Source of the DNA: Dehalococcoidia bacterium
Lineage (GTDB): Bacteria; Chloroflexota; Dehalococcoidia; Plut-88900
Direction: 5' to 3'
DNA: 64,000 nt
NCBI GenBank assembly: GCA_965249275.1
Contig: CBDFLQ010000006.1
Location: forward strand, 704,001 to 768,000
The notes under the pieces were generated by a model that was given only the letters and a program-made list of their open reading frames with translations, did no database searches and had not been told where the DNA came from. Numbering within the stretch: position 1 is the first letter of the stretch; every line of letters starts with the position of its first letter. The translations under genes were made by a program, and so were the position numbers. Positions 16,614 to 63,719 of the stretch are shown piece by piece.

Positions 16614-17675
16614 TTGCCCAACCTCAGCATTCCCTCCAAGTCCGCCCTTCTTAAGATAATCTTAGTCCTTCTGTTCCTGGCCATTGGGGGAACTGCCGGA
16701 ACATTCAGTTATCTGGGATTCGTAGAACTGCACCAGCTCAATGAGTCCATCACTCAGGACCGTGAACGTCTTGCGCTGCTGGAAAGCGCCCCCACCCCTC
16801 AGCACACACCTACCCTTCAACCCGCACCCACCCCCCAACCCGTCCCCACGCCTCAGCCTACTCCTACAACCCAGCCAACTTCTACTCCCCAACCCGTCCC
16901 CACCCCCCAGCCCATTCCGACGCCTCAGCCCATCCCCACCCCTCAACCCACCTCTACTCCAATAACCTTGCCACCCACCGTCACCCCGATAAGCCTGCCC
17001 CCGTCCCTAACTCCCGTACCCACGTGGAATGATCTGTACACACAAATCAGGCGCTCCGTGGTGAAAGTGGAAACTACTGGGGGCAGCGGGACCGGTTGGG
17101 TGTATGAAGAGGGATGGCTGGTCACGGCAGCCCATGTCGTCAAGGGTTACAGGACCGTGACCGTTCACTATCAAGACTCGGAAGGTCAAGAGAAGTCCGC
17201 TATGGTAAACGTGCTGGTCAGAGACCGGCTCCATGATGTCGCAGCCATCGAGCTAAAGGACATAGACCTCCCGCCCATCCCTGGCCGGCGAGATGTGGAA
17301 GCCAAGGATGGCGGCGAGGCTGTTATGACTGTGGGCTACTCATCCGACCCGCCAATTGGATGGCCGAGCACAAGGGTTGGCATCCTGACTACCGTCTCCG
17401 AATTACCTTGGCTCGAAAACCTTAAGGCCATCGAGACCGACGCCTCATTTGACCCAGGTGATTCGGGAGGTCCAATTCTGGATCTCAACGGCAACGTCAT
17501 AGGCATAGCCCAGGCCACCGTCATAAGGTCAGGCTCACAACGGATACAGGGCAGACAATTCGCCGTGGGAATACGAGAGGTCGAAGCCGTATGGGAGCAA
17601 CTCAAGCGTAATGAGCGCCTGAACCAGGGCTCAGACTACTGGATATATCGCCGCTCTGAAGGCCCCGACGAGTAG
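16614..17675 (+). CDS. Membrane-anchored trypsin-like (S1C) serine protease with Pro/Thr/Gln-rich linker
   Basis: N-terminal TM, PTPQP repeats, catalytic triad motifs TAAHVV, HDVA, PGDSGGP. Confidence 0.85.
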   Translation: MPNLSIPSKSALLKIILVLLFLAIGGTAGTFSYLGFVELHQLNESITQDRERLALLESAPTPQHTPTLQPAPTPQPVPTPQPTPTTQPTSTPQPVPTPQPIPTPQPIPTPQPTSTPITLPPTVTPISLPPSLTPVPTWNDLYTQIRRSVVKVETTGGSGTGWVYEEGWLVTAAHVVKGYRTVTVHYQDSEGQEKSAMVNVLVRDRLHDVAAIELKDIDLPPIPGRRDVEAKDGGEAVMTVGYSSDPPIGWPSTRVGILTTVSELPWLENLKAIETDASFDPGDSGGPILDLNGNVIGIAQATVIRSGSQRIQGRQFAVGIREVEAVWEQLKRNERLNQGSDYWIYRRSEGPDE

Positions 17676-22613: not shown

Positions 22614-23389
22614 CTGCCTCCTCCCGAAACTTAGCTTCCCTCGTGGGATAGCATCACATACCTATTAGCTCGCTTTGGGACTCCTTCTCACTAGTGTGAT
22701 ATATTTAGCAATATTCAACGTTCGTTCAATCACAAAAACTGGGACAACTCTTGTCAACTGTTTCCCACTTCCACCCGAATCGGCCTCCTGGAGGATTCAA
22801 CACGCTTAGTAGAAATTCGTGCCGGGGATAAAATAGCGTCAGGAATGGGTTGTTACCGGGATGCCGACGGGGGGGTTAGAAAGCCCACACCCTCCAATAT
22901 ACAGTAGAGTAATTCTCACTGATCCACTCTCAGGGGCAGCGTAGGAAGAAAGGAATAGACACCGGGTCTGCCTAAGAAGTTCATAGACTCCTTTATAGCG
23001 ACGTTTCCGCTACCCGCTTTAAATACATCGTACATGCGAATGGGAGTTACGTCAAGAAGTGAGGATTGTTTCACTATGTATTAAAGCCATGAGAATCTAC
23101 TTGCCAGAAGAGATTTTGATCATCCTTTCCGTGGTTGAATCATGCAGCCTTACAGGTCCAGAAGGCCTTTAGAACGGCTGCCAACACTTCTCGCAACAAT
23201 ACCCCACCCCCCGCTTGGTAACGATATATCAATAAAACAGGGCGGGTGGGCGGGACTCCACTTAATCCCGGGAGTAGGGACGCCACCCCTCCCCCGTAGG
23301 GGTGGTTCGCGAACCGCTCTGACCTCTGAGTAACCCCACCTCCGTCTCCGCCGCATCGAGCCATGTGCAACAAAAGTGACACGAACCCC

Positions 23390-23419
23390 TTGACCCAATG
23401 CGTACGCCTGTACTATATT
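23390..23419 (+). promoter_or_regulatory. Sigma70-like promoter with overlapping LexA-like box
   Basis: TTGACC-N18-TATATT; CGTAC-GCCT-GTACT at 23401-23414. Confidence 0.5.
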
Positions 23420-23425
23420 CACCCC

Positions 23426-24040
23426 CGACTAGCTCGTCACACACCTAAACCCTAAGGAGGAACCACAACCCAGGGGGAAGCCCAGCCCCGGCCCCGAGGA
23501 CTCAACGTCTAAGCCCATCCCAAAGGGCGGCCCACACGCCGCCCCTCGGCTCAAGCGAACGCCGCCATCTCCTCATACCAAAGGCCCCGGCTATCCCTTC
23601 CCCCACCCAGGCGATGGAAGGCCCACAGACTATCCTCGGCAGGCCCCGTCCAACGACGCCCCTGCCGATTCAACGCCCCTCATCATCGGGTGCGTTTACC
23701 CCGGCCCATTGCGCGCCGGTTTCCCGGGTAGGTCAACCGACCCCCGGTTTAGCAAGGCCCTCGTGTCCTTGTTTGTCCCGCCGTCCCTGCCATCCGTCTA
23801 CCCGGCGGATGCACCGGGACGCCGGTTCCGAAAGACCGCCTCAGGCGGCATCTTCCACGTCAGCGGTCCGGTCATGTGCCGCTCACGAATTGGGATCTGC
23901 CCCACACAACCCTGACCACAGCCGGCAACATGTGGGGATAATCCAGCCCGGCGCCGACGGCTCGGCAGCAACCCCCGGCCTGGTTTCTAGTCACGGACCT
24001 TCCATCGCCTGCCCCTCCACCAAAGCAAACCGAAACCCCC
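23426..24040 (+). ncRNA. Putative large structured ncRNA, copy A (unknown family; ends approximate)
   Basis: 5' ~190 nt homologous to the reverse complement of ~29100-29290; helix CAGGCGATGGAAGG (23608-23621) / CCTTCCATCGCCTG (23998-24011); serial internal hairpins; 3' motif GCAAACCGAAACCCC (24025-24039). Confidence 0.7.
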
Positions 24041-24102
24041 GGACGACAACCAAATATCGCCCCTCACCCCATGTATAATCCCCTGGCAGGAGGACACCCG
24101 AC

Positions 24103-25212
24103 ATGCGAGAACACCCCCTAGTTGACGTCGACAGCCACGTCCTTGAGCCCATGTCCGTCTGGCAGGACTACCTGGAACCCGACCTCAGGCCCCGTGCCAT
24201 CCGCTGGTCCACCGACGACAACGGGCGCGAGCTAATGCTGATCGACGGCAAGCCCGCGCGCCAGTTCATGCTCCGCAACGGCTGGATGGGCAGCCCCAAG
24301 GTCCCCGGAGGCCGCGCCTTCGAAGACCGGGTGACCACATCCCTCGGCGCAGCCAACGGCGCAGACCGCGTCCAACTGCTCGACAACGAAGGCATCGACA
24401 TCACCCTCCTCTACCCCACCCTCGGCATCCAGTGGGAGCCCGAGTTCGATGACTACAATCTCGCCGCCGCCCACGCCCGAGCCTACAACTCCTGGATCAC
24501 CGACCTCTGTAAACCCCATTCAGACCGCCTGGTTCCCGTAGCCCACGTAGTCGCCTCGGACGTCCAGGAGGGAGCGGCGGAGCTGGAGCGGGCCGCGGGG
24601 CTTGGGGCCCGGGGCGGCATGGTCAGCGGCAGACCCATTAACGGCATCCCCTACGGAGACCCATACTATGACCCCCTCTGGGCGCAGGCCCAGGAGTCCC
24701 GCATACCCCTCGCCCTGCACGTCATGGGCTACCCCAAGCACCTCGGCTACGACATGTACCCCGACACCAGCCCTAAGATCGCCTGGTGGGGCTTCGTCAC
24801 CCTCGGCCTGGAGGTCATCATCGGCCTGACCACCCTCTTCCAGGGCGCCGTCTTCGAACGGTTCCCGGACCTGCGCATCGTCGTCCTGGAGGCGGGGTCG
24901 GGGTGGCTGCCCTACTGGCTCGACAGGATGGACGAATACACGGAGCTCTTCACCTACGCCACGTCGCTATCGATGAAGCCGACCGAATACTTCAAACGAC
25001 AGTGCTGGATCTCCTTCGAACCCAGCGAGGAGATGATGCCCGAGACCATGGATTTCATAGGCGTCGACAAATTCATGTGGGCCGCCGACTACCCCCACAC
25101 CGACTCCGTCGCCGACCCAGTCCGTCTCCTAACAAAAATGCTCGCGCCCCTCTCCCAGGAAGACCGCTGGAAAGTCCTCGGCGACACCGCCGTCGAACTC
25201 TATGGCCTTTAA
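24103..25212 (+). CDS. Amidohydrolase_2 family protein
   Basis: VDVDSHVLEP, LYPTLG, LEAGSGW, WAADYPH. Confidence 0.88.
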   Translation: MREHPLVDVDSHVLEPMSVWQDYLEPDLRPRAIRWSTDDNGRELMLIDGKPARQFMLRNGWMGSPKVPGGRAFEDRVTTSLGAANGADRVQLLDNEGIDITLLYPTLGIQWEPEFDDYNLAAAHARAYNSWITDLCKPHSDRLVPVAHVVASDVQEGAAELERAAGLGARGGMVSGRPINGIPYGDPYYDPLWAQAQESRIPLALHVMGYPKHLGYDMYPDTSPKIAWWGFVTLGLEVIIGLTTLFQGAVFERFPDLRIVVLEAGSGWLPYWLDRMDEYTELFTYATSLSMKPTEYFKRQCWISFEPSEEMMPETMDFIGVDKFMWAADYPHTDSVADPVRLLTKMLAPLSQEDRWKVLGDTAVELYGL

Positions 25213-25231
25213 TAATCCTCTCTCCCTCGAC

Positions 25232-25384
25232 GAGACCTTTCTATGAATCGGGATTCATTGCGCCGGGGAACTATATTGCCCTTGCATTGGGGGCGGGGGG
25301 AATCCGCTCATCCTGAGCAGGGTCGAAGGGTCGAGCGGATTCCGGGAGGAGTCCCAGATAGTAGGCAGGTTGTGCAAAGATCCC
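25232..25384. mobile_element. Degenerate 153-bp MITE related to 11076-11207
   Basis: Ends GAGACCTTT.. / ..GTTGTGCAAAGATCCC; near-duplication TCGAC/TCGAT; sits in a CTCTCCC..GGAGA hairpin and carries the same internal CCGCTC..GAGCGG palindrome. Confidence 0.5.
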
Positions 25385-25544
25385 TCGATAGGAGAAGCCT
25401 AGGGCCTGCCCCGAGTCCCCCAAGGAAGGGAGGGTGCTCCCCATAACCTTATTGCGAACCATTGCAATAGCAACAGTTCGCATGTATAATCCTCCCAAGG
25501 CTTAAGCGCCTACATAGAAATCGGCGCAGAGAAAGGAAAACCCA

Positions 25545-25955
25545 ATGGTAAAGATCTACAACGTCCACAAAGCTATTGAAAACCTGACCCCCATAGTCAA
25601 CCGGGGCGAGAGTACCCCCGAAGAAGTGGTAGTCGCAGGCTTCGAGATTCTCGGCAGGGGCGATTTCCACGATGCGGCCATCAACCTCGGCACCTTCAAC
25701 GGCGACGCCGGCTGGGAGCGGCACGTCCAGGGTGACGAGATCGTACACATTGTGGCCGGCGAGACGGCAATCCAGATGCTCGTGGACGGCGAGCGCCAAA
25801 CCATTCAGGTAAGCGCGGGCGACCTACTGGTCGTGCCCCAGGGCACATGGCATCGCTTGCAGTCCGAAAAGGGAGTGACCGTCCTGACCGCAACCCCCGA
25901 GGGCCACGAAGACCACGCCTTCGTCGACGACCCCAGAGAACTGTACCCCTGCTAA
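25545..25955 (+). CDS. Cupin domain protein
   Basis: WERH..GDE..HIVAG and GDLLVVPQGTWH. Confidence 0.85.
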   Translation: MVKIYNVHKAIENLTPIVNRGESTPEEVVVAGFEILGRGDFHDAAINLGTFNGDAGWERHVQGDEIVHIVAGETAIQMLVDGERQTIQVSAGDLLVVPQGTWHRLQSEKGVTVLTATPEGHEDHAFVDDPRELYPC

Positions 25956-26115
25956 GCGTGTTGCTAAGCTTATGAATCCGGAGGGTTCATCTCCCTCCTT
26001 TGACTCTAGTTTGGGGTGGAGACGTTATTGTCTCCACCCTTGCACTATCCGACATGCGAGCCCCCAAGCCAGAATCTAACCCCGCCCCATCCCCCCGTGC
26101 TACACTCCCTCCGAC

Positions 26116-26859
26116 ATGCGAGCCCTCGCCCTAGCCTCTATGCTTTTATTCATAACAATACTTTCAGCCTGCGATAATGACACTCCTATCGAATGGGGCT
26201 ACACCGGCCCCGGCGCCCCCGAGAACTGGGCCGCCCTATCCCCCGACTTCGCCGCCTGCGCAAGCGGCAAACAGCAGTCCCCCATCGACATCACAGACTA
26301 CCAAGTTGGCGGACCCGACCCGATCTCCTTCTCATACGCCACCGCCGAGACAACCCTCCGCAACGACGGCAGACAGGTCCACGCCGACTCCGCCCCCGGC
26401 AACACCGCCATGCTAGGAGGTCGGGAATTCACGCTGAAGTCGGCGCACTTTCACTCGCCCTCGGAGCACCTGGTGGACGGCAATAGCTTTGCCGCCGAGC
26501 TTCACATGGTCCACGCCGACTCAGACGGCCGTCTGGCAGTCGTCGGGCTCCTGTTCACCCTCGGTGAGCCCAGCCCCGTAGCACAGTCGATTCTCGACGC
26601 CTCCCCACCCCCCGACGGCACTGGCAACGCCCATATCCCTCTCGCCGGCTCCCTCCCCACCGAGCTCTCCTACTACCGCTACGACGGCTCGAAAACCACT
26701 CCCCCCTGCGATGAGCCCGTCGACTGGCACGTCCTACGACAGCCAATGACCATATCCCAGGAGCAGGTGGAAGGCTTGCTTTCGCTGAGCGGAGGCCCCA
26801 ATAACCGCGCCGTCCAGCCGACTGGCGACCGCGTCATTACAATCGGCGGCGCGCCTTAG
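26116..26859 (+). CDS. Alpha-class carbonic anhydrase, lipoprotein
   Basis: Lipobox LSAC, WGY, QSPIDI, HFHSPSEH, ELHMVH, TTPPC, NNR. Confidence 0.93.
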   Translation: MRALALASMLLFITILSACDNDTPIEWGYTGPGAPENWAALSPDFAACASGKQQSPIDITDYQVGGPDPISFSYATAETTLRNDGRQVHADSAPGNTAMLGGREFTLKSAHFHSPSEHLVDGNSFAAELHMVHADSDGRLAVVGLLFTLGEPSPVAQSILDASPPPDGTGNAHIPLAGSLPTELSYYRYDGSKTTPPCDEPVDWHVLRQPMTISQEQVEGLLSLSGGPNNRAVQPTGDRVITIGGAP

Positions 26860-26893
26860 TAAGGGGCTAAGAGAGTGGGGGTTGTACGGCCCC

Positions 26894-28063
26894 TTACGGA
26901 ATCACGCTGCCGGCGATCAGGGTGCTGGCTGCGGCAAACATGCCACCCGGCCCGTGAGCAATCCCGACCTTGGCATCCTTCACCTGCCGCTCTCCCGCCT
27001 CGCCTCGAAGCTGACGCGTCAACTCGATCAGCGTGAAGATGCCGTACATCCCCGAGTGGGTGTAGGAGAGGCCGCCGCCGTTGGTGTTCATCGGGAACTC
27101 GCCGCCCGGCGCAGTCCTCTGCCCCTCGACGAACGGCCCGCTCTCCCCAGGCCCAACGAACCCCAGGTCCTCCAGTGCCAGCATTGGCGTGAAGGAGAAC
27201 GCGTCGTACAGCTCCGCCACGTCAATGTCCGAGTGCTTGACCCCGGCCATATCGAATGCAGCCTTACCGGACTTCCGTGCGCAGTCGGAGGTTGTCATGT
27301 CCCTCATCATGCTCACTCGCTCGTGGGAGACCGCCTCCCCCGTCCCGAGAACGTATACCGGCTTGTGCTTCAGGTCCTTGGCCCGGTCCGCGGTGGTGAG
27401 CACTATCGCTCCTCCGGCGTCGGTAACCAGGCAGCACATAAGGAGGGTGAAGGGCCAGCAAATCATCCGGGCATCCATAACGTCTTGGATTGTGATGGGG
27501 TCTTTCATCCGGGCCATCGGGTGCATCATTGCCCACTTCCGCGTCGCCACCGACACCTCCGCCAGCTGCTCCCGAGTCGTGCCGTACTTGTGCATGTGCC
27601 GGGTGACGGGTATCGAGAAAGTAGTAGTCGGGCCGAACGTCCCGAACGGGTCTTCGAACTGGCCATTGTGGGTTGCGCTTTCATCTGCGAAACCGGGCAG
27701 GCCCATGCGTGAGCGGCCGCTTTCGCCGTGACTGATGACCGCCGTGTTGATCACGCCCGCGCTCAGTGCCAGCATCGCGTGCTCCACGTGCATGATGAAG
27801 GAGCACCCCCCGACAATCGTGCTGTCCGCGTACCGGGGCATGACGCCAAGGTACTCGCACAGGTCGTTCACCGTGGTCTCGGGGGACCCGCCTGCCATGA
27901 ACAGCCCGTCTACGTCTCCCAGGCCCAGGCCCGCATCATCGAGGGCGTTTCGTATCGACTCGGCGTGCAGCGTGAGCACCGACTTATCGGGCAGCTTGCC
28001 CATCTCGTCAGACTCAGACGCTCCGACTATGGCGACCTTACCGCGCAAATCTTTCGGGGCCAT
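26894..28063 (-). CDS. SCP-x type thiolase / lipid-transfer protein family
   Basis: GGCSF, CCLVTDAGGA, ELYDAFS, NTNGGGLS, QLRGEAGERQV. Confidence 0.88.
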   Translation of the reverse strand: MAPKDLRGKVAIVGASESDEMGKLPDKSVLTLHAESIRNALDDAGLGLGDVDGLFMAGGSPETTVNDLCEYLGVMPRYADSTIVGGCSFIMHVEHAMLALSAGVINTAVISHGESGRSRMGLPGFADESATHNGQFEDPFGTFGPTTTFSIPVTRHMHKYGTTREQLAEVSVATRKWAMMHPMARMKDPITIQDVMDARMICWPFTLLMCCLVTDAGGAIVLTTADRAKDLKHKPVYVLGTGEAVSHERVSMMRDMTTSDCARKSGKAAFDMAGVKHSDIDVAELYDAFSFTPMLALEDLGFVGPGESGPFVEGQRTAPGGEFPMNTNGGGLSYTHSGMYGIFTLIELTRQLRGEAGERQVKDAKVGIAHGPGGMFAAASTLIAGSVIP

Positions 28064-28090
28064 GTCAGTCTCCTTATCACGTCAAAAGGC

Positions 28091-28498
28091 TCATGCGGGC
28101 CGGAACTGTGGCAGCGTCACTTCGTCGGTCACGTCAAGGTAGGCGATCTCGACGGCCATGTCGCAGTGGACCTTCTCCGGGTCGGGCTCGATGCCGATGA
28201 GGTTGCTCATCATCCGAGGCCCCTCTTCCAGCTCGACAACGGCGATGACGTATGGGTCAGACCCGAAGCCGGGGGCCGGCCTGTGGTTTATCACGAACGA
28301 GTACAGCGTCCCCTTCCCGCTGGCCTCGAACCACTCCACGTTTGACGAAAAGCAGTGGGGACAGAAGGGACGAGGATAGAAATACGCCTTACTGCAGTCC
28401 TTGCAGCGCTGTATGAGCAGCTTATGCTCCTTCAGCGCGTCCCAGTAGGGCCTGGTCTCGGGGGTTGGTGAGGGCAGGGGACGATTAGTATCCGCCAA
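28091..28498 (-). CDS. DUF35 Zn-ribbon/OB-fold partner of the thiolase
   Basis: QRCKDC..YPRPFCPHC, GTLYSF, VELEEGPRM; TTG 28498 follows GGAGG. Confidence 0.9.
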   Translation of the reverse strand: MADTNRPLPSPTPETRPYWDALKEHKLLIQRCKDCSKAYFYPRPFCPHCFSSNVEWFEASGKGTLYSFVINHRPAPGFGSDPYVIAVVELEEGPRMMSNLIGIEPDPEKVHCDMAVEIAYLDVTDEVTLPQFRPA

Positions 28499-28669
28499 TG
28501 GGGCCACCTCCCTGGGCATCCGTTGGGAATTCCGACGCCGCCTATCCTATCGCCCACCCGTTCCCGGTGTCAATCTGATGTACTCGTCCGGTAGGTCAGT
28601 GACACACTGGCCTTTTATTCAGTCCTCCAGAGGCGGATCCGCCCAAGGCGGATGTTCCATCTTCGATTG

Positions 28670-29295
28670 TGGGGTTTCGGTTTGCGTTCTGTCTGTTGGG
28701 TTTTGGGGTGGCGATGAAAGACGCTTGCTGGATTCGGCTCCCTATCTTTAGATAATGCGGGCTAGGAGGCGTCCCGGGAACGTGGGGACGGGGCTCCGCC
28801 GCCGCCTAGACCTGGAAGTATGGTCGGACGTACGGGTCCGTCATCCGTCATAGGCTCCAATGAAGGTTGGCTGCGCTGTCCGCCGCAGGCGGGTGCAGGA
28901 AGGGGAAAGTCCAGGGTCAGTTCCCCTCGCAGGAGTACGGGGTATCCGGTTCGCCGCCTGTATCCAGGAGCCGGGAGTGGCGGACAGTCCAGTTTTATTT
29001 GAGGAAGCGGACGGAGAGCCGAGCGGTCCTCGGCTACGGGCTGCCCCGTTCCGCTCCATAGGACAAGGTTGCTCCGTGAGGAGACTTTTAAGTACGGTCC
29101 AGGGCGTCTTCCATCGCCTGATGGTCAGGGAAGGGATAGCCGGGGCCCTTGGTAGAGGAGATGGCGGCGTTCGCTTGTGCCGTGGGGCGGCATGTGGGCC
29201 GCCCTTTGGGATGGGCTTGGACGTTGAGTCCTCGGGGGCCGGGTGGGCTTCCCTAGTGTTTGGTTCCTCCTTAAGGTGGGTGTCGGGTCTAGACT
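28670..29295 (-). ncRNA. Putative large structured ncRNA, copy B (same unknown family; ends approximate)
   Basis: Minus-strand 5' domain matches copy A; helix GGCGATGGAAGACGC (29118-29104) / GCGTCTTTCATCGCC (28724-28710); 3' motif GCAAACCGAAACCCC (28685-28671). Confidence 0.7.
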
Positions 29296-29301
29296 GGTCC
29301 A

Positions 29302-29330
29302 ATAATAGAACACATGTCTTATGAAGTCAA
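29302..29330 (-). promoter_or_regulatory. Near-consensus sigma70 promoter with overlapping LexA-like half-site
   Basis: Minus strand TTGACT-N17-TATTAT; AGAAC-ACAT-GTCTT at 29307-29320. Confidence 0.55.
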
Positions 29331-29379
29331 GGGGTGGATGTCACACTTTTGGGGGGGCACCGCCCCGGCCCTTCCGGGG

Positions 29380-29578
29380 AACCCTCACCCCCTTGGTCCC
29401 CCTCTCCCTTAGGGCCTTCAAGGGAGAGGGGGAAAGAAGAATAGAGGCCCGCATACGTGCTAGGCACGTATGCGGGCCTCTAATTCAGTACTGGGGGGAG
29501 GGGGAGGAAAAAACAGAGGCAGAGGCTGGCACTTCTGCGCCCACGTATGCCTCTAATTCAGTACTGAGGGGAGGGGGT
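29380..29578. repeat. REP-like palindrome cluster including a perfect 19-bp inverted repeat
   Basis: CCCTCTCCCTT..AAGGGAGAGGG; TAGAGGCCCGCATACGTGC-tag-GCACGTATGCGGGCCTCTA (29442-29482); duplicated GCCTCTAATTCAGTACTG. Confidence 0.6.
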
Positions 29579-29723
29579 GATGTCACCCCTTTATGTGAAC
29601 GTGATCAGCTACTATCCTCACCATGACACCGTCATATGTGTCACCCATATTTGTGAATGACTTGACAGATATGGACTAGTATTTTATTCTACGCCGCAGG
29701 ATTTTTTCTAACAAGGTTAGCAC

Positions 29724-32297
29724 ATGCCTCACGTCCTGCGAGTGTCCTACACGTTTGGAATCTTCGCCATCATCGGGATTGCCCTGTTCTTTGCAGTCGG
29801 AGTCTTTGCCGACGACCATAATTCCGTGGACCTATCCCCTTCCGTTTTATGGGAGGGAGAGGAGATCACTCAGCCGGTTGTCGGAGAGTTCCTAACCGCT
29901 GCCCTGGTTGCCGATGACCCGACCGGCATGTCCTGGCAGTGGGCCCGCTCCCAAGATGGAGAGAGCGGCTGGGAGGACATTGAGGCTGCAACCTCCACGA
30001 AGTACATCCCCACCGGGGATGACGTAGGGCGCTACCTCCGGGCAGCCGTCTCATATACCGATGGAGACGGCAACACGCAGAGTGCAGAGGCAATCACCAC
30101 CGATCAGGTGGAGCAAGAGAGGAGTGGTGTCCGCTGCCCATGGTGCGAACCTGGGCCGATATGGACGGCGACACCCGTGCCCACCAATACACCCGTGCCC
30201 ACCAATACACCCGTGCCCACCAATACACCCGTGCCCACCAATACACCCGTGCCCACCAATACACCCGTGCCCACCAATACACCTGTGCCCACCAATACAC
30301 CCGTGCCGACCAATACGCCCGTCCCGACCAATACACCCAGACCCGTCATCCCCACACCCACTCCCCTCAGCAAACCCCCACCCCCAACAGGGGTTCACGC
30401 AGAGGCACAGAGCTATACGTCAATTCTCATCTCTTGGAACAGGGACAGCAGGGGCGGAGTACAGAGTTATGACGTAGACTATGATGACTCCAGCGAGCCC
30501 CGGGACCACCACGGTGGTGGCCCCAACACCTTCAACCTGGTCTCCGGCCTCCGGATTTGCACTCTGTACACATTCACCGTTCAGGCCTTTGGTGACGGGA
30601 CTACCTACGCCGCTCGATGGAGCGACCCGTCCCACCCAGTAGAAGAGTGGACTCTCTGTCCTACCCCCACTCCGACCTCTACCCCTACCCCTACCCCCAC
30701 TCCGACCCCTACCCCTACCCCTACCCCTACCCCTACTCCCACCCCTACCCCTACTCCCACCCCTACCCCTACCCCTACTCCTACGGCCAGGCCTTGTCTG
30801 GTGGACTGCGAGCCACTACATATATGCAATACGAAGGCCGTTATCCCTGGATTTTCCAACAAACCTCACCTTGTGGCAGACTGTGTTGTCCTAAAAAGCA
30901 TCATAGACACCCTGAGGGGTGATGCGGGCGATGCATTGAATTGGAATGGCGAAACACTGTTGCGTGAATGGGAAGGACTCGGCTTTAGCCCCAAAACTGA
31001 CGAGCAGACCAACACGACCTATGATCGTGTTACAGCGTTGTACTTGAACGATAAGAACTTTAGCGGGACAATCCCTGCAAGGCTCGGCTATTTGTCTGCA
31101 CTCAATATCCTGTTTCTAAATGACAATGCTTTAACAGGATTTCTCACAGAATTAATAGTCGGAGATGAAATAGTGACCATTAACCTTGCTAACAATTCGT
31201 TGGAAGGACAAATCCCATCCGAATGGGGATATCGGGACAAACTCCAATCTCTTATCCTCAATGACAATATATTGGATGGAGGAATTCCGAGTTCACTGGC
31301 TAACCTCGAAAATCTTGATTTCCTATATCTCCAAAACAATGAATTAGAAGGTCCAATACCAAGTGCAATAGGAGACATGCCTTCTCTTAGCAGATGGTAT
31401 CTTGCGGGCAATAACCTCAGTCCTTGCTTACCTACATCACTGCTCAACATCGAAGAGAATGACTTTACTTTTCTTGGGCTCATTATCTGCCTTCCGACTC
31501 CTAAGAGAGAAGTACTTTGTCCATTAGCTGGAAGGATTGATCCTTCTGATTATGATGACAACAGCACTATTGTTAATATCGGGCCTGGCTCGTATCAAGT
31601 GCATAGATCGTCCACGTATATGTTCTTTCCTTTACCTGACCTCGGAGGTTCAGAACTTGGCCTGTCTGGGCTAGCTGCTTGTGGTAATAGCGCCGTTGCC
31701 ACTGCATCGGTCACGACTGTCAACACTAGTTTGTATGGCGCTGTTTACCATGGATACAATTCCGGTAGAACTGGATCTTTAGGACACTCCACACCGATTT
31801 TGGGACAAATGTGTACGAATAGTCGGACCTGTCTGTGGCAAAGTGGGTTTCTATTCGCAGGACAGGGTTGGGGTAACCAATTTCAAGTGTACGGTACGCA
31901 CCGTATATCTAGCAGCGGTGGGACTATAAACACATACCGGACAACTGGAGGATATAGTGTCGACGACGTAAGATTTGCTCAACCACCTCCCCATCCTCCG
32001 TTGAATGTTGATGCAACCGTCAATAGTCAAAATTTTGTCAATCTAACTTGGACTACGGAGCCTGATGTGGCCAGTTATGTAATTGAAAAAAGTGAAGATG
32101 AAGATTCCGATTTTAGGGAATGGGAGCAATTGATGGAAATAAGACCACCAGGCCAGATAGCGTTCTTGCTGGCCTGCGGTGATTCCTACTACTTAAGGAT
32201 AAGGTCTAAAGGTAGCGGATCACCTTATCCAGCAGCAAATGGCCCCCCTTCGCGTTCAATCAGGGTGTCTTCTTATTCCCCGTGCCCTACGAGGTGA
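29724..32297 (+). CDS. Secreted multidomain surface protein: Ig-like, TPVPTN repeats, FN3, PT linker, plant-type LRRs, C-terminal FN3-like
   Basis: Signal peptide; SWQWARS..YLRAAVSYTDG; ISWN..YTFTVQA; LxLxxNxLxGxIP repeats. Confidence 0.8.
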   Translation: MPHVLRVSYTFGIFAIIGIALFFAVGVFADDHNSVDLSPSVLWEGEEITQPVVGEFLTAALVADDPTGMSWQWARSQDGESGWEDIEAATSTKYIPTGDDVGRYLRAAVSYTDGDGNTQSAEAITTDQVEQERSGVRCPWCEPGPIWTATPVPTNTPVPTNTPVPTNTPVPTNTPVPTNTPVPTNTPVPTNTPVPTNTPVPTNTPRPVIPTPTPLSKPPPPTGVHAEAQSYTSILISWNRDSRGGVQSYDVDYDDSSEPRDHHGGGPNTFNLVSGLRICTLYTFTVQAFGDGTTYAARWSDPSHPVEEWTLCPTPTPTSTPTPTPTPTPTPTPTPTPTPTPTPTPTPTPTPTPTARPCLVDCEPLHICNTKAVIPGFSNKPHLVADCVVLKSIIDTLRGDAGDALNWNGETLLREWEGLGFSPKTDEQTNTTYDRVTALYLNDKNFSGTIPARLGYLSALNILFLNDNALTGFLTELIVGDEIVTINLANNSLEGQIPSEWGYRDKLQSLILNDNILDGGIPSSLANLENLDFLYLQNNELEGPIPSAIGDMPSLSRWYLAGNNLSPCLPTSLLNIEENDFTFLGLIICLPTPKREVLCPLAGRIDPSDYDDNSTIVNIGPGSYQVHRSSTYMFFPLPDLGGSELGLSGLAACGNSAVATASVTTVNTSLYGAVYHGYNSGRTGSLGHSTPILGQMCTNSRTCLWQSGFLFAGQGWGNQFQVYGTHRISSSGGTINTYRTTGGYSVDDVRFAQPPPHPPLNVDATVNSQNFVNLTWTTEPDVASYVIEKSEDEDSDFREWEQLMEIRPPGQIAFLLACGDSYYLRIRSKGSGSPYPAANGPPSRSIRVSSYSPCPTR
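30171..30332 (+). repeat. Nine tandem 18-bp units ACACCCGTGCCCACCAAT (coding TPVPTN)
   Basis: Directly counted; first six identical, last three with synonymous changes. Confidence 0.9.
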
Positions 32298-32306
32298 TGA
32301 TACGCT

Positions 32307-33857
32307 ATGAAATGGGAAATGCTAATAGCAATTTTATTCTCTCTGCTGTTCCTGCTATTCGCCATATCCTGCAAGCCTACGCCTGTTGATGCCGAGTCGG
32401 CATTGAAAGAAGTGTGTTCACGGAGTGAAACACACACACACTACGATATGACAACAACTGGCACTGTGATAAGAGGCGAGCAAAGCTCGGAATTCTCCAT
32501 AGATTACGAAGTGAGCGGGAACAGCTTTCGACAGATAGTAATGGACGATCAGGATATGGTTTTGGGTGAGTTGATTTTCGTGGACGGCGTATTTTATGTG
32601 AGAGAGACCAATATACTAGGACAATGGGGGCAATGGGCAGCGTACCAGGATTATGGAACAGATAGTGCTAATTCGAGTCCAGGTGCCCGAGGGAGCCCAG
32701 GAATATCAGGAATATGTGGCATCGAAGGCCTTGTTAATTTCAGGGATATGGGAACAATGACGAAAGATGGCTTATCCCTGAGGGTATACGCAGCGTTGGC
32801 TCCATCGGGATCCGGTGGAGGAAACAACCGGATTGAATACATGTTTTGGGTGGACAGCAACAGAATCCTACGCAGGTTTTCGCTCAACTCCTTCAGTGAG
32901 GGTGTATCTGGGCTTTTGGATGAGAGCGTATCATACACCACTACTGTTCACGGTATTGATGTAGTGAATGTGATCGTTGCTCCTATCTCTCCTCCGGATT
33001 TTCAGTCCCCAACTCCTTTCCCGGCCAAGGAAGCTACTTTTGTGGATGCAACCGCAGAGCCCAGCGCATTCGCAACTGCCCAAGCTGTATCCACCACAAT
33101 TGCCGAACAAACCCTCAGGCCGTCTTCGGAGATAACGGGTCTAGTGAGCGACATGGAAGAGGGAGAGAGCGACTCATTTGGTGTGAGTGCTACGAACCTG
33201 GTGTCGACGGACAGCTACAGCATACGGGTGACCACGGACAACACCAATACGGGGTTTGACAGCGGGTGCATGGATCAGCAGGAGGACGTGACGATATCTG
33301 CTGGGAGCACGTCCCACACGGAGTCTCTCATGCTGTACGGGTGTACTGCGCCCGGTGGGACGGTGACGGCGACGCTGCTGCAGGGGAGCACTATTGTGGC
33401 CACTGCCACCGCCGACGTGGCGGTAACCGATCCCACCCCCGAACCTTCAGCCACACCGGAACCCACCGCAACACCCGAACCTACACCTACGCCCACATCA
33501 ATTCCTCAGCCCACACCAACTCCCCAACAGACCTCTAGCGTGTCCGTCTCCCTCTCTCCTCGGGATGACCCCTACATCACCCAGACCGACATCACCGTCT
33601 CCTGGTCAGACTCCACTCCCTGCCAAGGAAGCTACTTCGTAGGAGTTTCCGACAGCCAAGGCTATTTGATTAGATTGCTCGGTTCCCACCCCGCACCCGC
33701 TACTACAGCTATTGACGCAGACCTCAGCCTCCCCTGGGACAATGTCCCCAACTATTCTTGGACGGTAAGCGTGCGTTGCGACCCTTCCGAGAACTCCTCC
33801 GATTGGTGGATGCTCGGAGAAGTGCCCCTACAATCGGGCTTGCCCAGTTCGCCCTAG
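32307..33857 (+). CDS. Lipoprotein with PT-rich linker and shared C-terminal domain
   Basis: Lipobox FAISC; C-terminal ~134 aa nearly identical to that of the next gene. Confidence 0.8.
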   Translation: MKWEMLIAILFSLLFLLFAISCKPTPVDAESALKEVCSRSETHTHYDMTTTGTVIRGEQSSEFSIDYEVSGNSFRQIVMDDQDMVLGELIFVDGVFYVRETNILGQWGQWAAYQDYGTDSANSSPGARGSPGISGICGIEGLVNFRDMGTMTKDGLSLRVYAALAPSGSGGGNNRIEYMFWVDSNRILRRFSLNSFSEGVSGLLDESVSYTTTVHGIDVVNVIVAPISPPDFQSPTPFPAKEATFVDATAEPSAFATAQAVSTTIAEQTLRPSSEITGLVSDMEEGESDSFGVSATNLVSTDSYSIRVTTDNTNTGFDSGCMDQQEDVTISAGSTSHTESLMLYGCTAPGGTVTATLLQGSTIVATATADVAVTDPTPEPSATPEPTATPEPTPTPTSIPQPTPTPQQTSSVSVSLSPRDDPYITQTDITVSWSDSTPCQGSYFVGVSDSQGYLIRLLGSHPAPATTAIDADLSLPWDNVPNYSWTVSVRCDPSENSSDWWMLGEVPLQSGLPSSP

Positions 33858-36165
33858 GCCGCCACTCACCTTCTACAACCGCCCCTACCCCTACCCCTCC
33901 ACCCCCCCGGCACAGACCGAAAATACGACTATGGCGTGAGCCCATCCCTTGGGAACCTTTTAGGCAACTAATACGTTATAGTCATATAAGATGTATGGTC
34001 CACAAGCATCTAGCGCTTTTTGGCTGCATGTGGATGTATGTCACCGAGTTCACGGTTATTTAGCTCAAAGGTAGCCTCGGCCTCCGACCATGATGCACGA
34101 ATTCGGGCACACCCTGGGGAATCCGAGCTTTTGGGAGATATCTACTAGAGTGGATTTGGCTCCAATAGTTGATGTAGTCAACACAGGAGCAGTCATGCGA
34201 ATGTTGTATAGAAGCCGATTGCGGATGATGCAGATCGTGGGCCTGGGTGTGGCCCTAGTGGTTGTTGTGCTCCTAGCGATAGGCTGTGGTAGTGCCGACA
34301 CCGAGGTAGAGACCACACAAGGCAGTGGCAAAAGTTCGGCATCGGGTGCGATGTCCAGCGGCGTTCCCTACACAGGCGAGTCCTCGATGGAGGAAACGAT
34401 AGCGTATGCGGAGGCTGTGGCCCGCGTCAGGTTCAGGTCCGCCAGACAGACCATCGAGGAAATCCGATTTGATTTCCGCAACTCCGACCGATATATCACT
34501 TATTATGCCAACTCCATCGAGATTACGTTCGAGGTGCTTGAATATCTCAGGGGTAGCGGAGGCGATGAAATCAAAGCGGTGCTATTCGACCATGACGGAT
34601 TGCGTGAAACCCGTGCGGAGGTGGAGGCCCTCAATGAGAACCTATTGTCCTTGCGCACCACCCAATGGGACGAGAGAGAAGCCATCGTGTTCTTGCATTC
34701 GGGTGACGGTGTGGTCAGCACTTTTGACGACCCCGACCGCTATTGGATGACCTCCTTCCGCAACAACGGAGAGGACGGCTACACGGTAGCGAGCAGATGG
34801 GAAAAGGCGTGGCTCCCCGATGCCGCCGCACAGGGGGCGACGGGCAGGGCATTGGGCGGAGAGCAGCGGTTCTTGATAAATCTGCCGAGTGGATCCCAAG
34901 ACGCGAGTGGACGTAGTAGCACTCAAGGCGAGTCGATGACAATCAGTGAATTGAAGGCCCTGGTCACGAGGATAGGGAATGAACTTGCCGCCGGTGGTAC
35001 GGAAGCCTACGCCGAGTGCGTTCGTGACAAATACCGCTCGGCAAGATATCAACAGTACCTCAAGAACCATCGTGAGACCGTATGGGGCGTCGAGTACAAC
35101 CGCCAACACGTGAAAGCGATAACGTCGGGCGCATCATCCGGCACCGAAGTGTACGTCGGTAGTGCGGCTGACCATATTGATGCAGATGACATCCCCGACT
35201 CGCTCGATATTGATGATGTGATATTGCACACAGGACAGGATGCGGACTTGTTTGACAAGGTGTGGCCAGCCAACGCTGTTACGGCGCGACCCCTTCCTCA
35301 AGGCACCTACCGGTTCTATTGGGCCGACCAGCCCAAGAATTACGCCTTGTGTGATGCCATATCGGAAATCCGTAAGAAACGAAACGAGGTAATCGTCACG
35401 GTCGCCCCGCCCTCCGGTACCCTTCACGAAGCCTTCTTTGATCCGGTGACCATTGGCACGGGGGTGGGGGTTGACGGGTCCAACGGCGTCATAAACCCCG
35501 CCGCCTTCTCTATAGACGGCACATCAACCTCCATCACCGGCCTCAAGTGGGAAAGCGGCTCCGTCGTCCTATCCCTCTCCCCCTTATCCTCCCTCTCGGG
35601 GCAGAAGGTGGAGTTCATAGAGCTGGACGGGTCCGTTTCCCTCTCACTACCCGCGTCCTCCGCCACAGAGGACTCTTCCGCAGGCACCCTCTCCTGGTCC
35701 GTATCAGACCAGCCCTGGCACAACGACGACTTACTCATGCTGCGGATTGTGGCTTCCACAACACCCGAACCCACCGCAACACCCGAACCTACACCTACGC
35801 CCACATCAACTCCTCAGCCCACACCAACTCCACAACAGACCTCAAGCGTGTCCGTCTCCCTCTCCCCTCGGGATGACCCCTACATCACCCAGACCGACAT
35901 CACCGTCTCCTGGTCAGACTCCACTCCCTGCCAAGGAAACTACTTCGTAGGAGTTTCGGACAGCGAAGGTTATTTGATTAGATTACTCGGTTCCCACCCC
36001 GCACCCGCTACTACAGCTATTGATGCAGACCTCAGCCTCCCCTGGGACAATGTCTCCAACTATTCTTGGACGGTAAGCGTGCGTTGCGACCCTTCCGATA
36101 GCTCCTCCGATTGGTGGATGCTCGGAGAAGTGCCCCTACAATCGGGCTTGCCCAGTTCGCCCTAG
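33453..36165 (+). repeat. ~405-bp near-identical direct repeat (33453-33857 and 35761-36165)
   Basis: Both copies encode TPEPTATPEP...SSVSVSLSPRDDPY...LQSGLPSSP-stop with few substitutions. Confidence 0.9.
34195..36165 (+). CDS. Lipoprotein with shared C-terminal domain
   Basis: AGGAG before ATG 34195, lipobox LAIGC; the longer ORF start at 34090 is probably not used. Confidence 0.78.
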   Translation: MRMLYRSRLRMMQIVGLGVALVVVVLLAIGCGSADTEVETTQGSGKSSASGAMSSGVPYTGESSMEETIAYAEAVARVRFRSARQTIEEIRFDFRNSDRYITYYANSIEITFEVLEYLRGSGGDEIKAVLFDHDGLRETRAEVEALNENLLSLRTTQWDEREAIVFLHSGDGVVSTFDDPDRYWMTSFRNNGEDGYTVASRWEKAWLPDAAAQGATGRALGGEQRFLINLPSGSQDASGRSSTQGESMTISELKALVTRIGNELAAGGTEAYAECVRDKYRSARYQQYLKNHRETVWGVEYNRQHVKAITSGASSGTEVYVGSAADHIDADDIPDSLDIDDVILHTGQDADLFDKVWPANAVTARPLPQGTYRFYWADQPKNYALCDAISEIRKKRNEVIVTVAPPSGTLHEAFFDPVTIGTGVGVDGSNGVINPAAFSIDGTSTSITGLKWESGSVVLSLSPLSSLSGQKVEFIELDGSVSLSLPASSATEDSSAGTLSWSVSDQPWHNDDLLMLRIVASTTPEPTATPEPTPTPTSTPQPTPTPQQTSSVSVSLSPRDDPYITQTDITVSWSDSTPCQGNYFVGVSDSEGYLIRLLGSHPAPATTAIDADLSLPWDNVSNYSWTVSVRCDPSDSSSDWWMLGEVPLQSGLPSSP

Positions 36166-51948: not shown

Positions 51949-52040
51949 GGAGGGATCGCATAGTGGTCTAGTGCGGGCGCCTGCTAAGCGCTTATCTGGG
52001 GAAACCTGGATCGTGGGTTCGAATCCCACTCCCTCCGCCA
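51949..52040 (+). tRNA. tRNA-Ser(GCT)
   Basis: GGAGGGA/TCCCTCC acceptor stem, anticodon loop CT-GCT-AA, long variable arm, GTTCGAATCC, 3' GCCA. Confidence 0.95.
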
Positions 52041-56749: not shown

Positions 56750-56827
<78 letters not shown>

Positions 56828-62744: not shown

Positions 62745-63719
62745 TTAGCGTTTCCGCGCTATCAGGTAGGAGAATACGCCAAGGGCGAAGGCGCTGGTAA
62801 CAGCCTGAATAACTATCAGGGTGGTCCGCCTACGCGGGCTGGAAGCAATACCCCCCAGCGTGTTACGGATGCGCGGTATGGCGTCTCCGATTACGGGTGC
62901 TGCGGGTTGCTCCAACTCTTGTAAATCCGTTTGAGTCGTAGACCCTCCCCCGGGAGCAGACAGTGGTGCGGCAGTAGGCATTGCGGTGGGCGTGGGAGTG
63001 GGGACAGATGTAGGCGTAGGTGCGGGTATGGGAGTCGGGACCGGAGTCGGAGTTGGGATGGGAGTTGGAATCGGAGTTGGGGTGGGTGTTGGCGTCGGGG
63101 TGGGTGTTGGGGTAGGAGTTGGGGTAGGGATGGGTGTTGGGGTAGGGATGGGTGTCGGTGTCGGGGTCGGAGTTGGGGTCGGGGTGGGAGTCGGAGTTGG
63201 GGTAGGGGTGGGTGTCGGCGTCGGGGTTGGCGTGGATGTCGGTATCGGGGTTGGAATGGGGGTTGGCGTAGCCGTAGGCGGTGGCGGAGGAGGTGTTGGT
63301 GTCGGGGTTGGCGTAGCAGTGGGAGGTGGCGGTGGTGGGGGAGGAGGTGGCGGTGGCGGTGGGGGAGGAGGTGGCGGTGGCGGTGGGGGAGGAGGTGGCG
63401 GTGGCGGTGGGGGAGGAGGTGGCGGGGGGTCACCATCAAATAGGCCACACCATGATCTGGGATCACTTCCGCAGGGGAACTGACATTCACTTCCTCCACT
63501 GCTGACGGCACATGTCGTCACAGTGCCAGGGGGATTGGAAGGGGGAACGGGCAGACCACTACTATCGCAACTCGTCGGGGCACTGTTAACGTTACCATCT
63601 TCGTCGTAGTAGTAGTACGTGCACTCCAAAGACTCTTGAGCATTGGCACGCATCGTATAGCCAATCCCAATCGTGAGGATGACGATGGCAATGAGAATGC
63701 CGCCTAAGGCGTATTTCAT
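62745..63719 (-). CDS. Secreted/anchored Pro-rich protein with 36 consecutive prolines
   Basis: Signal peptide, Cys-rich head, Pro codons 63321-63428, PT repeats, C-terminal hydrophobic helix plus RKR. Confidence 0.75.

Follow-up and report, generated by a model that had tools for sequence, protein, structure and literature searches.

The window analysed here, a stretch of 64,000 nt from a Dehalococcoidia bacterium (contig CBDFLQ010000006.1, positions 704,001 to 768,000), contains two copies, termed A and B, of a non-coding RNA gene of about 590–630 nt. The results show that this RNA gene is the cargo of a 0.7–1.0-kb non-autonomous DNA transposon that is polymorphic between species. Both copies are quite probably genus-specific elements of this kind, which bring along a promoter and a non-coding RNA and land upstream of −35-like hexamers.

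An earlier note on this DNA had counted two copies and had suspected a large multicopy non-coding RNA family. BLAST with the 186-nt 5′ domain of the RNA retrieved 54 copies with 69–93% identity from the genome to which the window belongs (2.9 Mb, 7 contigs, 59% G+C, 87% complete), and a covariance model of the 5′ domain likewise yielded 54 matches. Therefore, the count of two had to be replaced, and the suspected family, which has no Rfam match, was borne out. The copies are distributed over five of the seven contigs (C2 and C4–C7); the flanks of two of them, on C4 and C7, are the same, and these two may represent one locus that was assembled twice. The covariance model was also applied to related genomes, as the note had proposed. 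Between 23 and 71 copies were found in each of the nine genomes of the genus. These nine were the only positive ones among the 12 genomes of the order that were searched, and three further genera of the family and order gave no match. The 136 further genomes of the class were also negative, so that 5 of the 141 sampled genomes were positive, all from the genus. Viral contigs contained 0 exact matches to the 5′ domain pattern, and plasmids gave no blastn match.

A MAFFT alignment of copies A and B revealed a common promoter, 5′ domain and 3′ end, with a poorly aligning interior between them. In the whole genome the interiors fall into subfamilies of 13, 11, 10, 6, 4, 3, 2, 2, 1, and 1 members. 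Copy A is part of the 13-member subfamily (F1) and copy B of the 11-member subfamily (F2), and this is why their interiors had looked variable. The proposed conserved scaffold was thus retained, but the idea of a freely varying interior that serves as a cargo or guide was replaced by a few diverged subfamilies.

The ends of the element were well defined. The left end reads TGATCCCGTTCACATAGAGGGGTGACAT and the right end ...GTGTCACTAAYCTACCGAACGAGTACA (as reverse complement TGTACTCGTTCGGTAGATTAGTGACAC), which yields TG...CA termini and imperfect terminal inverted repeats of about 27 bp (TGATCCCGTTC.../...GAACGAGTACA). In complete elements the order is left repeat, promoter, RNA gene, zero to three small hairpin modules, and right repeat, and the span from repeat to repeat is 699–1038 bp. 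The right repeat is present in 23 of the 54 copies of the genome and both repeats in 16. An exact 5-bp target duplication was found at 9 of these 16 elements, and three more had one mismatch. At the loci of relatives the duplication was exact in four of nine cases, again with one mismatch in three more.

Filled and empty sites were analyzed by comparing 35 element instances from contigs of relatives with the genome of the window. In 20 cases both flanks were on one contig. At 4 of these 20 comparable sites, the window's genome had a gap that was shorter by at least 750 nt, and two of the four had clean junctions at the base level (a slash marks the junction). The empty site C7:435662-436086 reads ...CAAAA/TTGAGCC, and the relative (locus L040) has 874 nt between the two parts. 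The empty site C2:10499-11049 reads ...GGTGAGGC/TTTAAC, and the sequence of the relative (locus L070) is ...GAGGC/TGATCCCG...GAGTACA/GAGGC/TTTAAC. At the other two candidates, L056 and L063, the junctions were complex, and these sites were set aside. No conserved reading frame and no similarity to the bodies of insertion sequences (IS) were found inside the element, i.e., it has no internal transposase gene. The earlier note had considered a non-autonomous mobile RNA. The non-autonomous mobility was confirmed, but the element moves as DNA rather than as RNA, because it has terminal inverted repeats, 5-bp duplications and filled and empty sites, and because the promoter travels along. A match to a known IS or Rfam family had been named as an argument against a new RNA; the RNA gene indeed resides in a transposon, but the RNA as such is not explained by any known IS or Rfam family.

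The target sites were far from random. At 18 of 35 distinct right ends, a TTG was found at offset +5 past the end, whereas each of 30 other offsets had at most two of 35. In 15 of the 18 cases, a TAnnnT motif followed 15–19 nt further downstream. At both empty sites the hexamer (TTGAGC and TTTAAC, respectively) is host DNA. The downstream gene is co-directional with the element in 40 of 53 cases, whereas 13 of 53 copies face a convergent gene. The 40 co-directional genes, which include transfer RNA (tRNA) genes, are unrelated (34 clusters), and no consistent association with one gene family or pathway was found among them. The position of the TTG and the prevalence of co-directional genes indicate that insertion takes place 5 nt upstream of −35-like hexamers, with the element facing the gene. 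Because the spacing is fixed, it argues for an enzyme that reads the hexamer rather than for selection that keeps such insertions. How a promoter could be read by a DDE enzyme thereby becomes a question of mechanism, and a transposon with this fixed distance and orientation would be a natural tool for the rewiring of promoters.

The orientation of the insertions could also be explained by a mobile promoter with a long cis-acting leader, i.e., by read-through into the host gene and a folded RNA that stabilizes or regulates the host messenger RNA (mRNA). The 40 co-directional genes and the close contact between the right end and the host −35-like hexamer would fit, as would the left repeat and promoter that occur by themselves before groES-groEL and a related motif and promoter before a tRNA gene. 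The reuse of promoters apart from their genes is described in an excerpt of PMC3575422, and MITEs (transposable elements of miniature size with inverted repeats) with outward promoters in an excerpt of PMC10969869. Nevertheless, this explanation is unlikely: the downstream genes are unrelated and 13 of 53 are convergent, the host gene, judged by sequence motifs, keeps its own promoter behind the element, and the G-poor tail of the RNA resembles a termination signal. In addition, none of the listed RNA-library contigs described below joins copy A to its gene, although this absence is no proof.

The promoter module in front of groES-groEL consists of the left repeat and the promoter with the same spacing as in the element, and a related GTGACAC motif with a promoter precedes a tRNA gene (loci C6:928829(-) and C5:117381(+)). 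The groES-groEL leader contains the palindrome TTAGCACTC-N9-GAGTGCTAA, which is of the CIRCE type. Apart from the elements, a search of the genome for their repeats found only this solo left repeat at groES and two more. Judged from their sequences, both promoter modules look as if they had been left behind by the element or were common to it.

A candidate for the enzyme is encoded in the same genome, which contains 22 matches to rve domains. An IS of 1056 bp is present in about 11 copies (e.g., C6:524505-525560), and its open reading frame of 320 amino acids matches rve_3, rve, and rve_2. In an alignment made by eye, its terminal repeat TGTAAGTGTTAGGTAATTCGTTGACAG agrees with the right repeat of the element at 17 of 27 positions. 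The IS generates a 5-bp duplication (ATTCC) and is always inserted in the palindromic repeat GTCATTCCGAGGCYCCGCGAGGAATC. With IS of the IS481/IS3 type, which have an rve (DDE integrase) core, the element has in common the TG...CA termini, the 5-bp duplication and the 17/27 similarity to the resident IS, but it lacks a transposase gene and shares nothing with the IS bodies beyond the likeness of the repeats. As the ends of the element resemble those of the 1056-bp IS, we infer that an rve transposase of the IS481/IS3 type may move it in trans. A second rve IS (frame of 401 amino acids, 8 copies) is always found in ...GGGAGAGGGCTAGGGTG/AGGGTGA beside another hairpin repeat.

Copies A and B were read directly on both strands, and all helices of the earlier note were present at their coordinates, with the one reservation about a mini-hairpin that is given below. 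Copy A is located on the plus strand. Its promoter (23376–23419) consists of GTGACAC (23376–23382), a −35 box TTGACC (23390–23395), and, after a spacer of 18 nt, a −10 box TATATT (23414–23419). The RNA core of subfamily F1 extends from the start predicted from the −10 position to the 3′ strand of the long-range helix (23426–24011). It includes the Shine-Dalgarno-like sequence AAGGAGG (23454–23460), a candidate 5′ stabilizer with no ATG, GTG, or TTG within reach downstream, and the 5′ domain (23473–23604). In this domain, helix P1 (GGGGGAAG, 23473–23480, with CTTCCCCC, 23597–23604) encloses AGCC/GGCT, GGCC/GGCC, GAGGA/TCCTC, and the GGGCGGC and GGC/GCC hairpins. The long-range helix pairs 23608–23621 with 23998–24011 in 14 perfect base pairs, and it encloses an interior of 376 nt with GC-rich hairpins (23622–23997). 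The CA-rich and G-poor tail (24012–24056) ends in CAACCAAATA; copy A is a short form without the right inverted repeat. Copy A has neither of the terminal repeats, and its upstream flank is common to another copy. The downstream gene encodes an amidohydrolase, and four paralogues of this gene likewise follow a copy (the five form one cluster). These two observations indicate that some copies probably spread together with their gene.

Copy B is located on the minus strand and measures 1029 bp from the left to the right repeat. The left terminal inverted repeat TGATCACGTTCACATAAAGGGGTGACAT (29580–29607) is separated by about 250 nt of other repeats from the promoter (29302–29346), which consists of GTGTGACAT, a −35 box TTGACT (29330–29325), a spacer of 17 nt, and a −10 box TATTAT (29307–29302). 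The RNA core of subfamily F2 (28710–29295) contains AAGGAGG at 29272–29266, helix P1 formed by TAGGGAAG and CTTCCCTG, and a long-range helix of 15 bp including one G.U pair (29118–29104 with 28724–28710); a second delimitation of this helix sets its strands at 29120–29105 and 28723–28710. The GGGCGGC/GCCGCCC hairpin is present in both copies, and both tails contain the identical 15-mer GCAAACCGAAACCCC (24025–24039 in copy A, 28685–28671 in copy B). The CA-rich tail of copy B (28661–28709) is followed by two small hairpin modules, GGAACATCCGCCTTGGGCGGA and TCCGCCTCTGGAGGA (28623–28658), and by the right terminal inverted repeat GTGTGTCACTGACCTACCGGACGAGTACA (28579–28607). The pentamer TCAGA at the position of the target duplication and a host promoter-like site come next (together 28544–28578; TTGACA 28573–28568, TAGGAT 28549–28544), and a ChsH2-like gene lies beyond this site (28519–28091, minus strand). 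The pentamers that flank copy B differ from one another. In copy B, the left repeat and the promoter have between them a palindrome that is long and perfect (GAGGCCCGCATACGTGC..GCACGTATGCGGGCCTC, 29434–29493). Both of its strands gave spurious microRNA-type Rfam matches, with E-values of about 4e-4 and scores far short of the gathering threshold.

The architecture of the RNA and its promoter was highly uniform among the copies. The sigma-70-type promoter cassette GTGACAY-N6-9-TTGAY was found in 51 of the 54 copies. Just past the predicted start, a short palindromic hairpin occurs in several versions, e.g., GACUGGCCAGUC, GAUUGGCCAAUC, and GGUCUAGACC. AAGGAGG is invariant in all 52 aligned copies and is not followed by a start codon. 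In the 5′ domain of about 130 nt, P1 is followed by two short helices that are split by a CC/CC internal loop and then by GAGGA/UCCUC, beyond which a junction carries the variable hairpin P4 and the GGC/GCC hairpin. The domain also contains a nearly invariant single strand of about 23 nt, CUCAACGYCYMAGCCCAUCCCAA. The long-range helix was found in all 53 copies examined and has typically 15–17 bp, and the interior that it encloses varies from 288 to 520 nt. The tail of about 45 nt that follows the helix consists of 41% A, 43% C, 8.5% G, and 8% T and ends in CACAACUGAAUAA or a variant thereof. Many elements contain, close to the 3′ end, one to three insertions of a hairpin module of 22 nt, GGAACATCCGCCTNNGGAGGA, the stem of which occurs in covarying versions; in three copies the module resides in the loop of the GGC/GCC hairpin.

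Covariation of the helices had been proposed from copies A and B. On plain MAFFT alignments, RNAalifold yielded a poor consensus, and the pair counts showed little covariation. As indels were misplaced in these alignments, the copies were realigned with the covariance model. With 101 model-aligned copies, 85.2% of the cells in the 5′ domain were paired, compared with 42–54% when the partners were slid, 13 pairs were changed on both sides, a number equalled by none of 500 shuffles, and the covariation score was 0.100 versus 0.068 for shuffled and at most 0.041 for slid partners; these pair figures lean towards structure, because the sequences are relatives of one another and had been aligned to fit the model. 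Four of the five pairs of the P4 hairpin were changed on both sides. The versions of the short helices, as read from the alignments, also differ on both sides (AGCC/GGCU versus CAC/GUG, GGCCC/GGGCC versus GACCC/GGGUC). In the long-range helix the first 11 bp are nearly constant, and covariation was observed at the next four positions, numbered 11–14 (A-U 18/G-C 18, U-A 19/C-G 14, C-G 19/G-C 18). Thus, the proposal holds for the 5′ domain and for four positions of the long helix. This was not the case for a GGAC/GTCY mini-hairpin, for which the family offered no support; in the RNAalifold consensus, GAGGA is paired with a UCCUC further downstream. In the 53 sequences used for RNAalifold, no pair of this helix has more than one unpaired cell, and 99.8% of its cells are paired in the 101 copies. 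As it has no two-sided change, covariation speaks neither for nor against it.

The strand of the RNA was indicated by the wobble pairs, which read as G.U rather than A.C on the strand driven by the promoter, as had been noticed before (18 versus 3 in the core of the long helix, 103 versus 52 in the 5′ domain). In silico folding of the 586-nt RNA of copy A gave a z score of −5.83, no fold as good among 100 shuffles, and a recovery of the named helices; P1, AGCC/GGCT, and GGCC/GGCC are present in the minimum free energy fold. For copy B the z score was −3.11.

A match to a known RNA family was not obtained, as had been expected. At the gathering thresholds of Rfam 15, only two tRNAs were found in the window, and E-values of up to 10 added only chance microRNA-type matches on the flanking palindrome in the region 23000–29700. 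OLE, ROOL, GOLLD, HEARO, 6S, tmRNA, RNase P, group I and II introns, and riboswitches of Rfam gave no match. A literature search, which had supplementary files outside its scope, found no description of the RNA family or of a target preference 5 nt upstream of a −35 box. Four conserved single-stranded or helix segments were used to look for antisense targets, and only complements at chance level were found elsewhere in the genome.

The strong Shine-Dalgarno-like AAGGAGG and the open frames of 100–250 codons in some copies could also be taken as signs of a protein-coding family with a conserved N-terminus and a variable body. This is extremely improbable. Copy A has no start codon behind AAGGAGG, and the longest open frames are barely longer than those of shuffled sequences (on average 148 versus 121 codons) and lie in different frames. 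The sense strand contains 38% C and 15% T, so that stop codons are rare by composition. Furthermore, indels of 1 or 2 nt have counterparts on the other strand of the helices. No frame is conserved, in agreement with the claim that indels break any shared reading frame.

Possible expression was suggested by public sequencing data. A sponge metagenome is among the labels of the sequencing runs that contain the stretch, and the bacterium is sponge-associated; runs with small shares were disregarded as to habitat. Contigs from four RNA libraries of two studies cover 23486–24012 of copy A, and several of them lie on its unique interior with zero to three differences (23563–23664, 23635–23887, 23727–23920). 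None of the listed contigs covers 23300–23485 or 24013–24136, a gap that carries no evidential weight. Contigs of the two studies stop at 24005 and 24009, which is a weak hint at most.

The following scheme can be proposed for the transcript. It would start about 7 nt after the −10 box, and the 5′ hairpin together with AAGGAGG, in the absence of a start codon, could hold a 30S subunit against RNase J, as in STAB-SD elements. The covarying 5′ domain and the long closing helix would likewise make the transcript lasting. Transcription would end at the C-rich and G-poor tail with the help of Rho, and trimming would then shorten the 3′ end as far as the helix. The genome of the window encodes RNase J, and Rho is present in five of five congeners examined. 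The STAB-SD of the Bacillus cry3A mRNA is a Shine-Dalgarno-like sequence that binds the 30S subunit and blocks RNase J1, as stated in excerpts of PMC4113751 and PMC5737220. The similarities are the location of AAGGAGG about 28 nt from the predicted start, the lack of a start codon, and the presence of RNase J. In contrast, the host belongs to the Chloroflexota and is not a Firmicute, AAGGAGG could instead pair inside the RNA, and the likeness was seen in the sequence alone.

Besides the leaning of the pair figures mentioned above, several observations speak against the proposed promoter-seeking transposon with a transcribed, structured RNA. Only 16 of 54 copies have both canonical repeats, and copy A has neither. 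The antisense strand of copy A also folds well (z = −4.47), and therefore folding energy alone leaves the strand unsettled. The RNA-library contigs reveal neither strand nor ends and may reflect carried-over DNA. Rho was not found in the genome of the window, which is 87% complete, and the roles given to AAGGAGG and the tail are putative. No autonomous IS with the ends of the element was found in this genome or in ten fetched transposase loci (L157–L166), the 1056-bp IS being the nearest to it, and the congener G004 has 71 RNA copies but only 3 rve matches. The bodies of the IS share nothing with the element; the one match was a real IS copy beside C7_509174. The transposase results leave mobilization in trans at the level of an inference.

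Further results against a working RNA came from orthologous copies. In 13 pairs of orthologous insertions, 12.9% of the paired and 15.1% of the unpaired positions of the 5′ domain differ. Among 67 changed pairs of the orthologues, 20 stay paired in both and 47 are unpaired in one, and the expectation was that 18% stay paired (p = 0.015). Thus, the fold is kept across subfamilies and is conserved weakly between orthologous copies. At the orthologous site of copy A, the interior of the element of the relatives does not match copy A, and many copies combine helix halves of different versions, which suggests an exchange between copies. In this scheme the fold would matter mainly for the spread of the element, its expression, or its tolerance beside a host promoter; spreading lineages would keep the fold, and single insertions would drift and exchange segments. 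The combination of compensated differences between subfamilies and drift of single insertions favors a role in the success of the element itself over a role in cellular housekeeping.

A domesticated RNA family that serves the host in trans, e.g., as a ribonucleoprotein (RNP) scaffold, as a sponge for a protein or the 30S subunit, or as an RNA-only assembly, and for which the ends are just a vehicle, is a possibility that merits attention, albeit with a limited chance of being correct. The RNA unit is far more intact than the ends: AAGGAGG and the junction strand are present in 53 of 54 copies each and the two helix halves in 53 and 54, compared with 23 of 54 for the right repeat and 16 of 54 for both repeats. 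It has to be considered that the presence of the 5′ domain is by construction, because the copies were found via this domain. BLAST with the interiors did not retrieve fragments, but only members of two sister families, and at 16 of the 20 comparable insertion sites the gap is as long or longer in the window's genome, with the copy at the same place compared for 13. The strong consensus promoter cassette, the invariant AAGGAGG, and the existence of RNA-library contigs would also be in accord with a host function. On the other hand, the orthologues have almost no excess conservation at paired positions, many copies have mixed helix halves that leave mismatches, and, of all genomes searched, those of a single genus contain the family. 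A partner protein was not identified, and neither a nuclease nor another conserved protein gene is adjacent. The RNP scaffold and the cargo or guide function suggested in the earlier note were not supported by any result.

The opposite interpretation, a selfish DNA repeat with a functionless RNA, the helices of which are ancestral leftovers or by-products of GC-rich palindromes and the transcription of which is incidental, is rather doubtful. The similar substitution rates at paired and unpaired orthologous positions, the common hybrids of helix halves, and the ability of both strands to fold better than shuffled sequences would be expected, and the genome is rich in other repeats and IS copies. 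Yet the subfamilies are separated by two-sided changes in the short helices, four of the five P4 pairs and four positions of the long helix have changed in concert, and G.U pairs outnumber A.C pairs on the sense strand. The promoter and AAGGAGG are nearly invariant, and a second RNA family with a different 5′ domain keeps a long closing helix of its own in 11 of 13 copies. Even if the RNA were functionless, it would be a clean case of helices that are kept in the spreading lineages of a selfish element.

By analogy, the RNA might also take part in transposition or target choice, as a scaffold or guide that would bring the rve transposase to promoters, at a distance of 5 nt upstream of the −35 box, or it might form an RNA-only particle, but the probability of either is low. 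The omega and bridge RNAs are large transposon-borne RNAs that proved to be guides, and ROOL and GOLLD have been reported to self-assemble into RNA-only particles. If the analogy holds, a promoter-driven, modular RNA of about 600 nt with 40–70 copies would constitute a new class of functional RNAs that is coupled to a transposon in search of promoters.

The usual length of MITEs is a few hundred base pairs at most, so that the element, with 699–1038 bp, is larger than expected for this group. It resembles MITEs in that it is non-autonomous, multicopy, and intergenic, has terminal inverted repeats and target duplications, and lacks a transposase. It differs from them in its size, in its covarying RNA cargo of about 600 nt, and in the fixed distance to −35-like hexamers. 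Prokaryotic MITEs with internal sigma-70-like promoters (Correia elements of Neisseria) or as sources of small RNAs (QMITE1/2 of Coxiella) are described in an excerpt of PMC10969869. Highly similar promoter regions in front of unrelated prokaryotic genes are the subject of an excerpt of PMC3575422; here, similarly, one cassette is found in front of three RNA families, groES-groEL, and a tRNA gene. In contrast to that case, the vehicle is defined by repeats and a target duplication, and the promoter chiefly yields the RNA of the element itself.

Few large structured RNAs are known from bacteria, and several of these have opened up new biology. With OLE, ROOL, GOLLD, HEARO, and raiA, the RNA of the element shares the size class of about 600 nt, the ornate multi-helix fold, and the non-coding nature, but it has no Rfam match, 40–70 copies per genome with a promoter each, and no adjacent conserved protein gene. 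HEARO turned out to be the guide RNA for a nuclease carried by a transposon and is thus a precedent for a tie between large RNAs and mobile DNA. The RNA described here is undescribed, abundant, and modular, in that three alternative 5′ domains are combined with a common closing helix and interior, and its role is made testable by a defined DNA transposon as the carrier. For the evolution of the sponge-symbiont genome, it means about 50 insertions on the promoters of metabolic genes, tRNA genes, and partly groESL.

The second C-rich non-coding family has 13 copies in the genome and none in the window, and 11 of the 13 have the same promoter cassette. Nine copies are on the plus strand (C5:157046, C5:477369, C6:57608, C6:128888, C6:141759, C6:222453, C6:946595, C7:453441, and C7:724494) and four on the minus strand (C5:735477, C5:271995, C5:169070, and C6:841533). 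The 5′ domain is different (...CCAGGCCCGAC..GUCGGCCCUAAUAAGGAAAGGACAUAGGAGUCCCAUGAGUCGCA), and a right inverted repeat is absent. The long-range helix is formed by AUGGAAGGUYCCC and GGGACCUUCCAU in 11 of the 13 copies, and the interior has about 72% identity with its counterpart in the family of copies A and B. A third type with two copies (C5:2109 and C7:110680) has part of the interior in common.

The two tRNA genes of the window are located at 51949–52037 and 56750–56822 on the plus strand. Two pairs of direct repeats of at least 300 nt, 46427–46930/47315–47818 and 33445–33744/35753–36052, are 75% and 95% identical and 888 and 2308 nt apart, respectively, and look like tandem paralogous genes. 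A frame of 857 amino acids at 29724–32297 matches fibronectin type III domains and leucine-rich repeats, and it contains tandem repeats of 18 nt and 12 nt that encode Pro/Thr-rich linkers (30135–30374 and 30630–30809). Similar linker repeats were found in other frames at 16791–16961, 33432–33539, 35753–35847, and 62989–63429.

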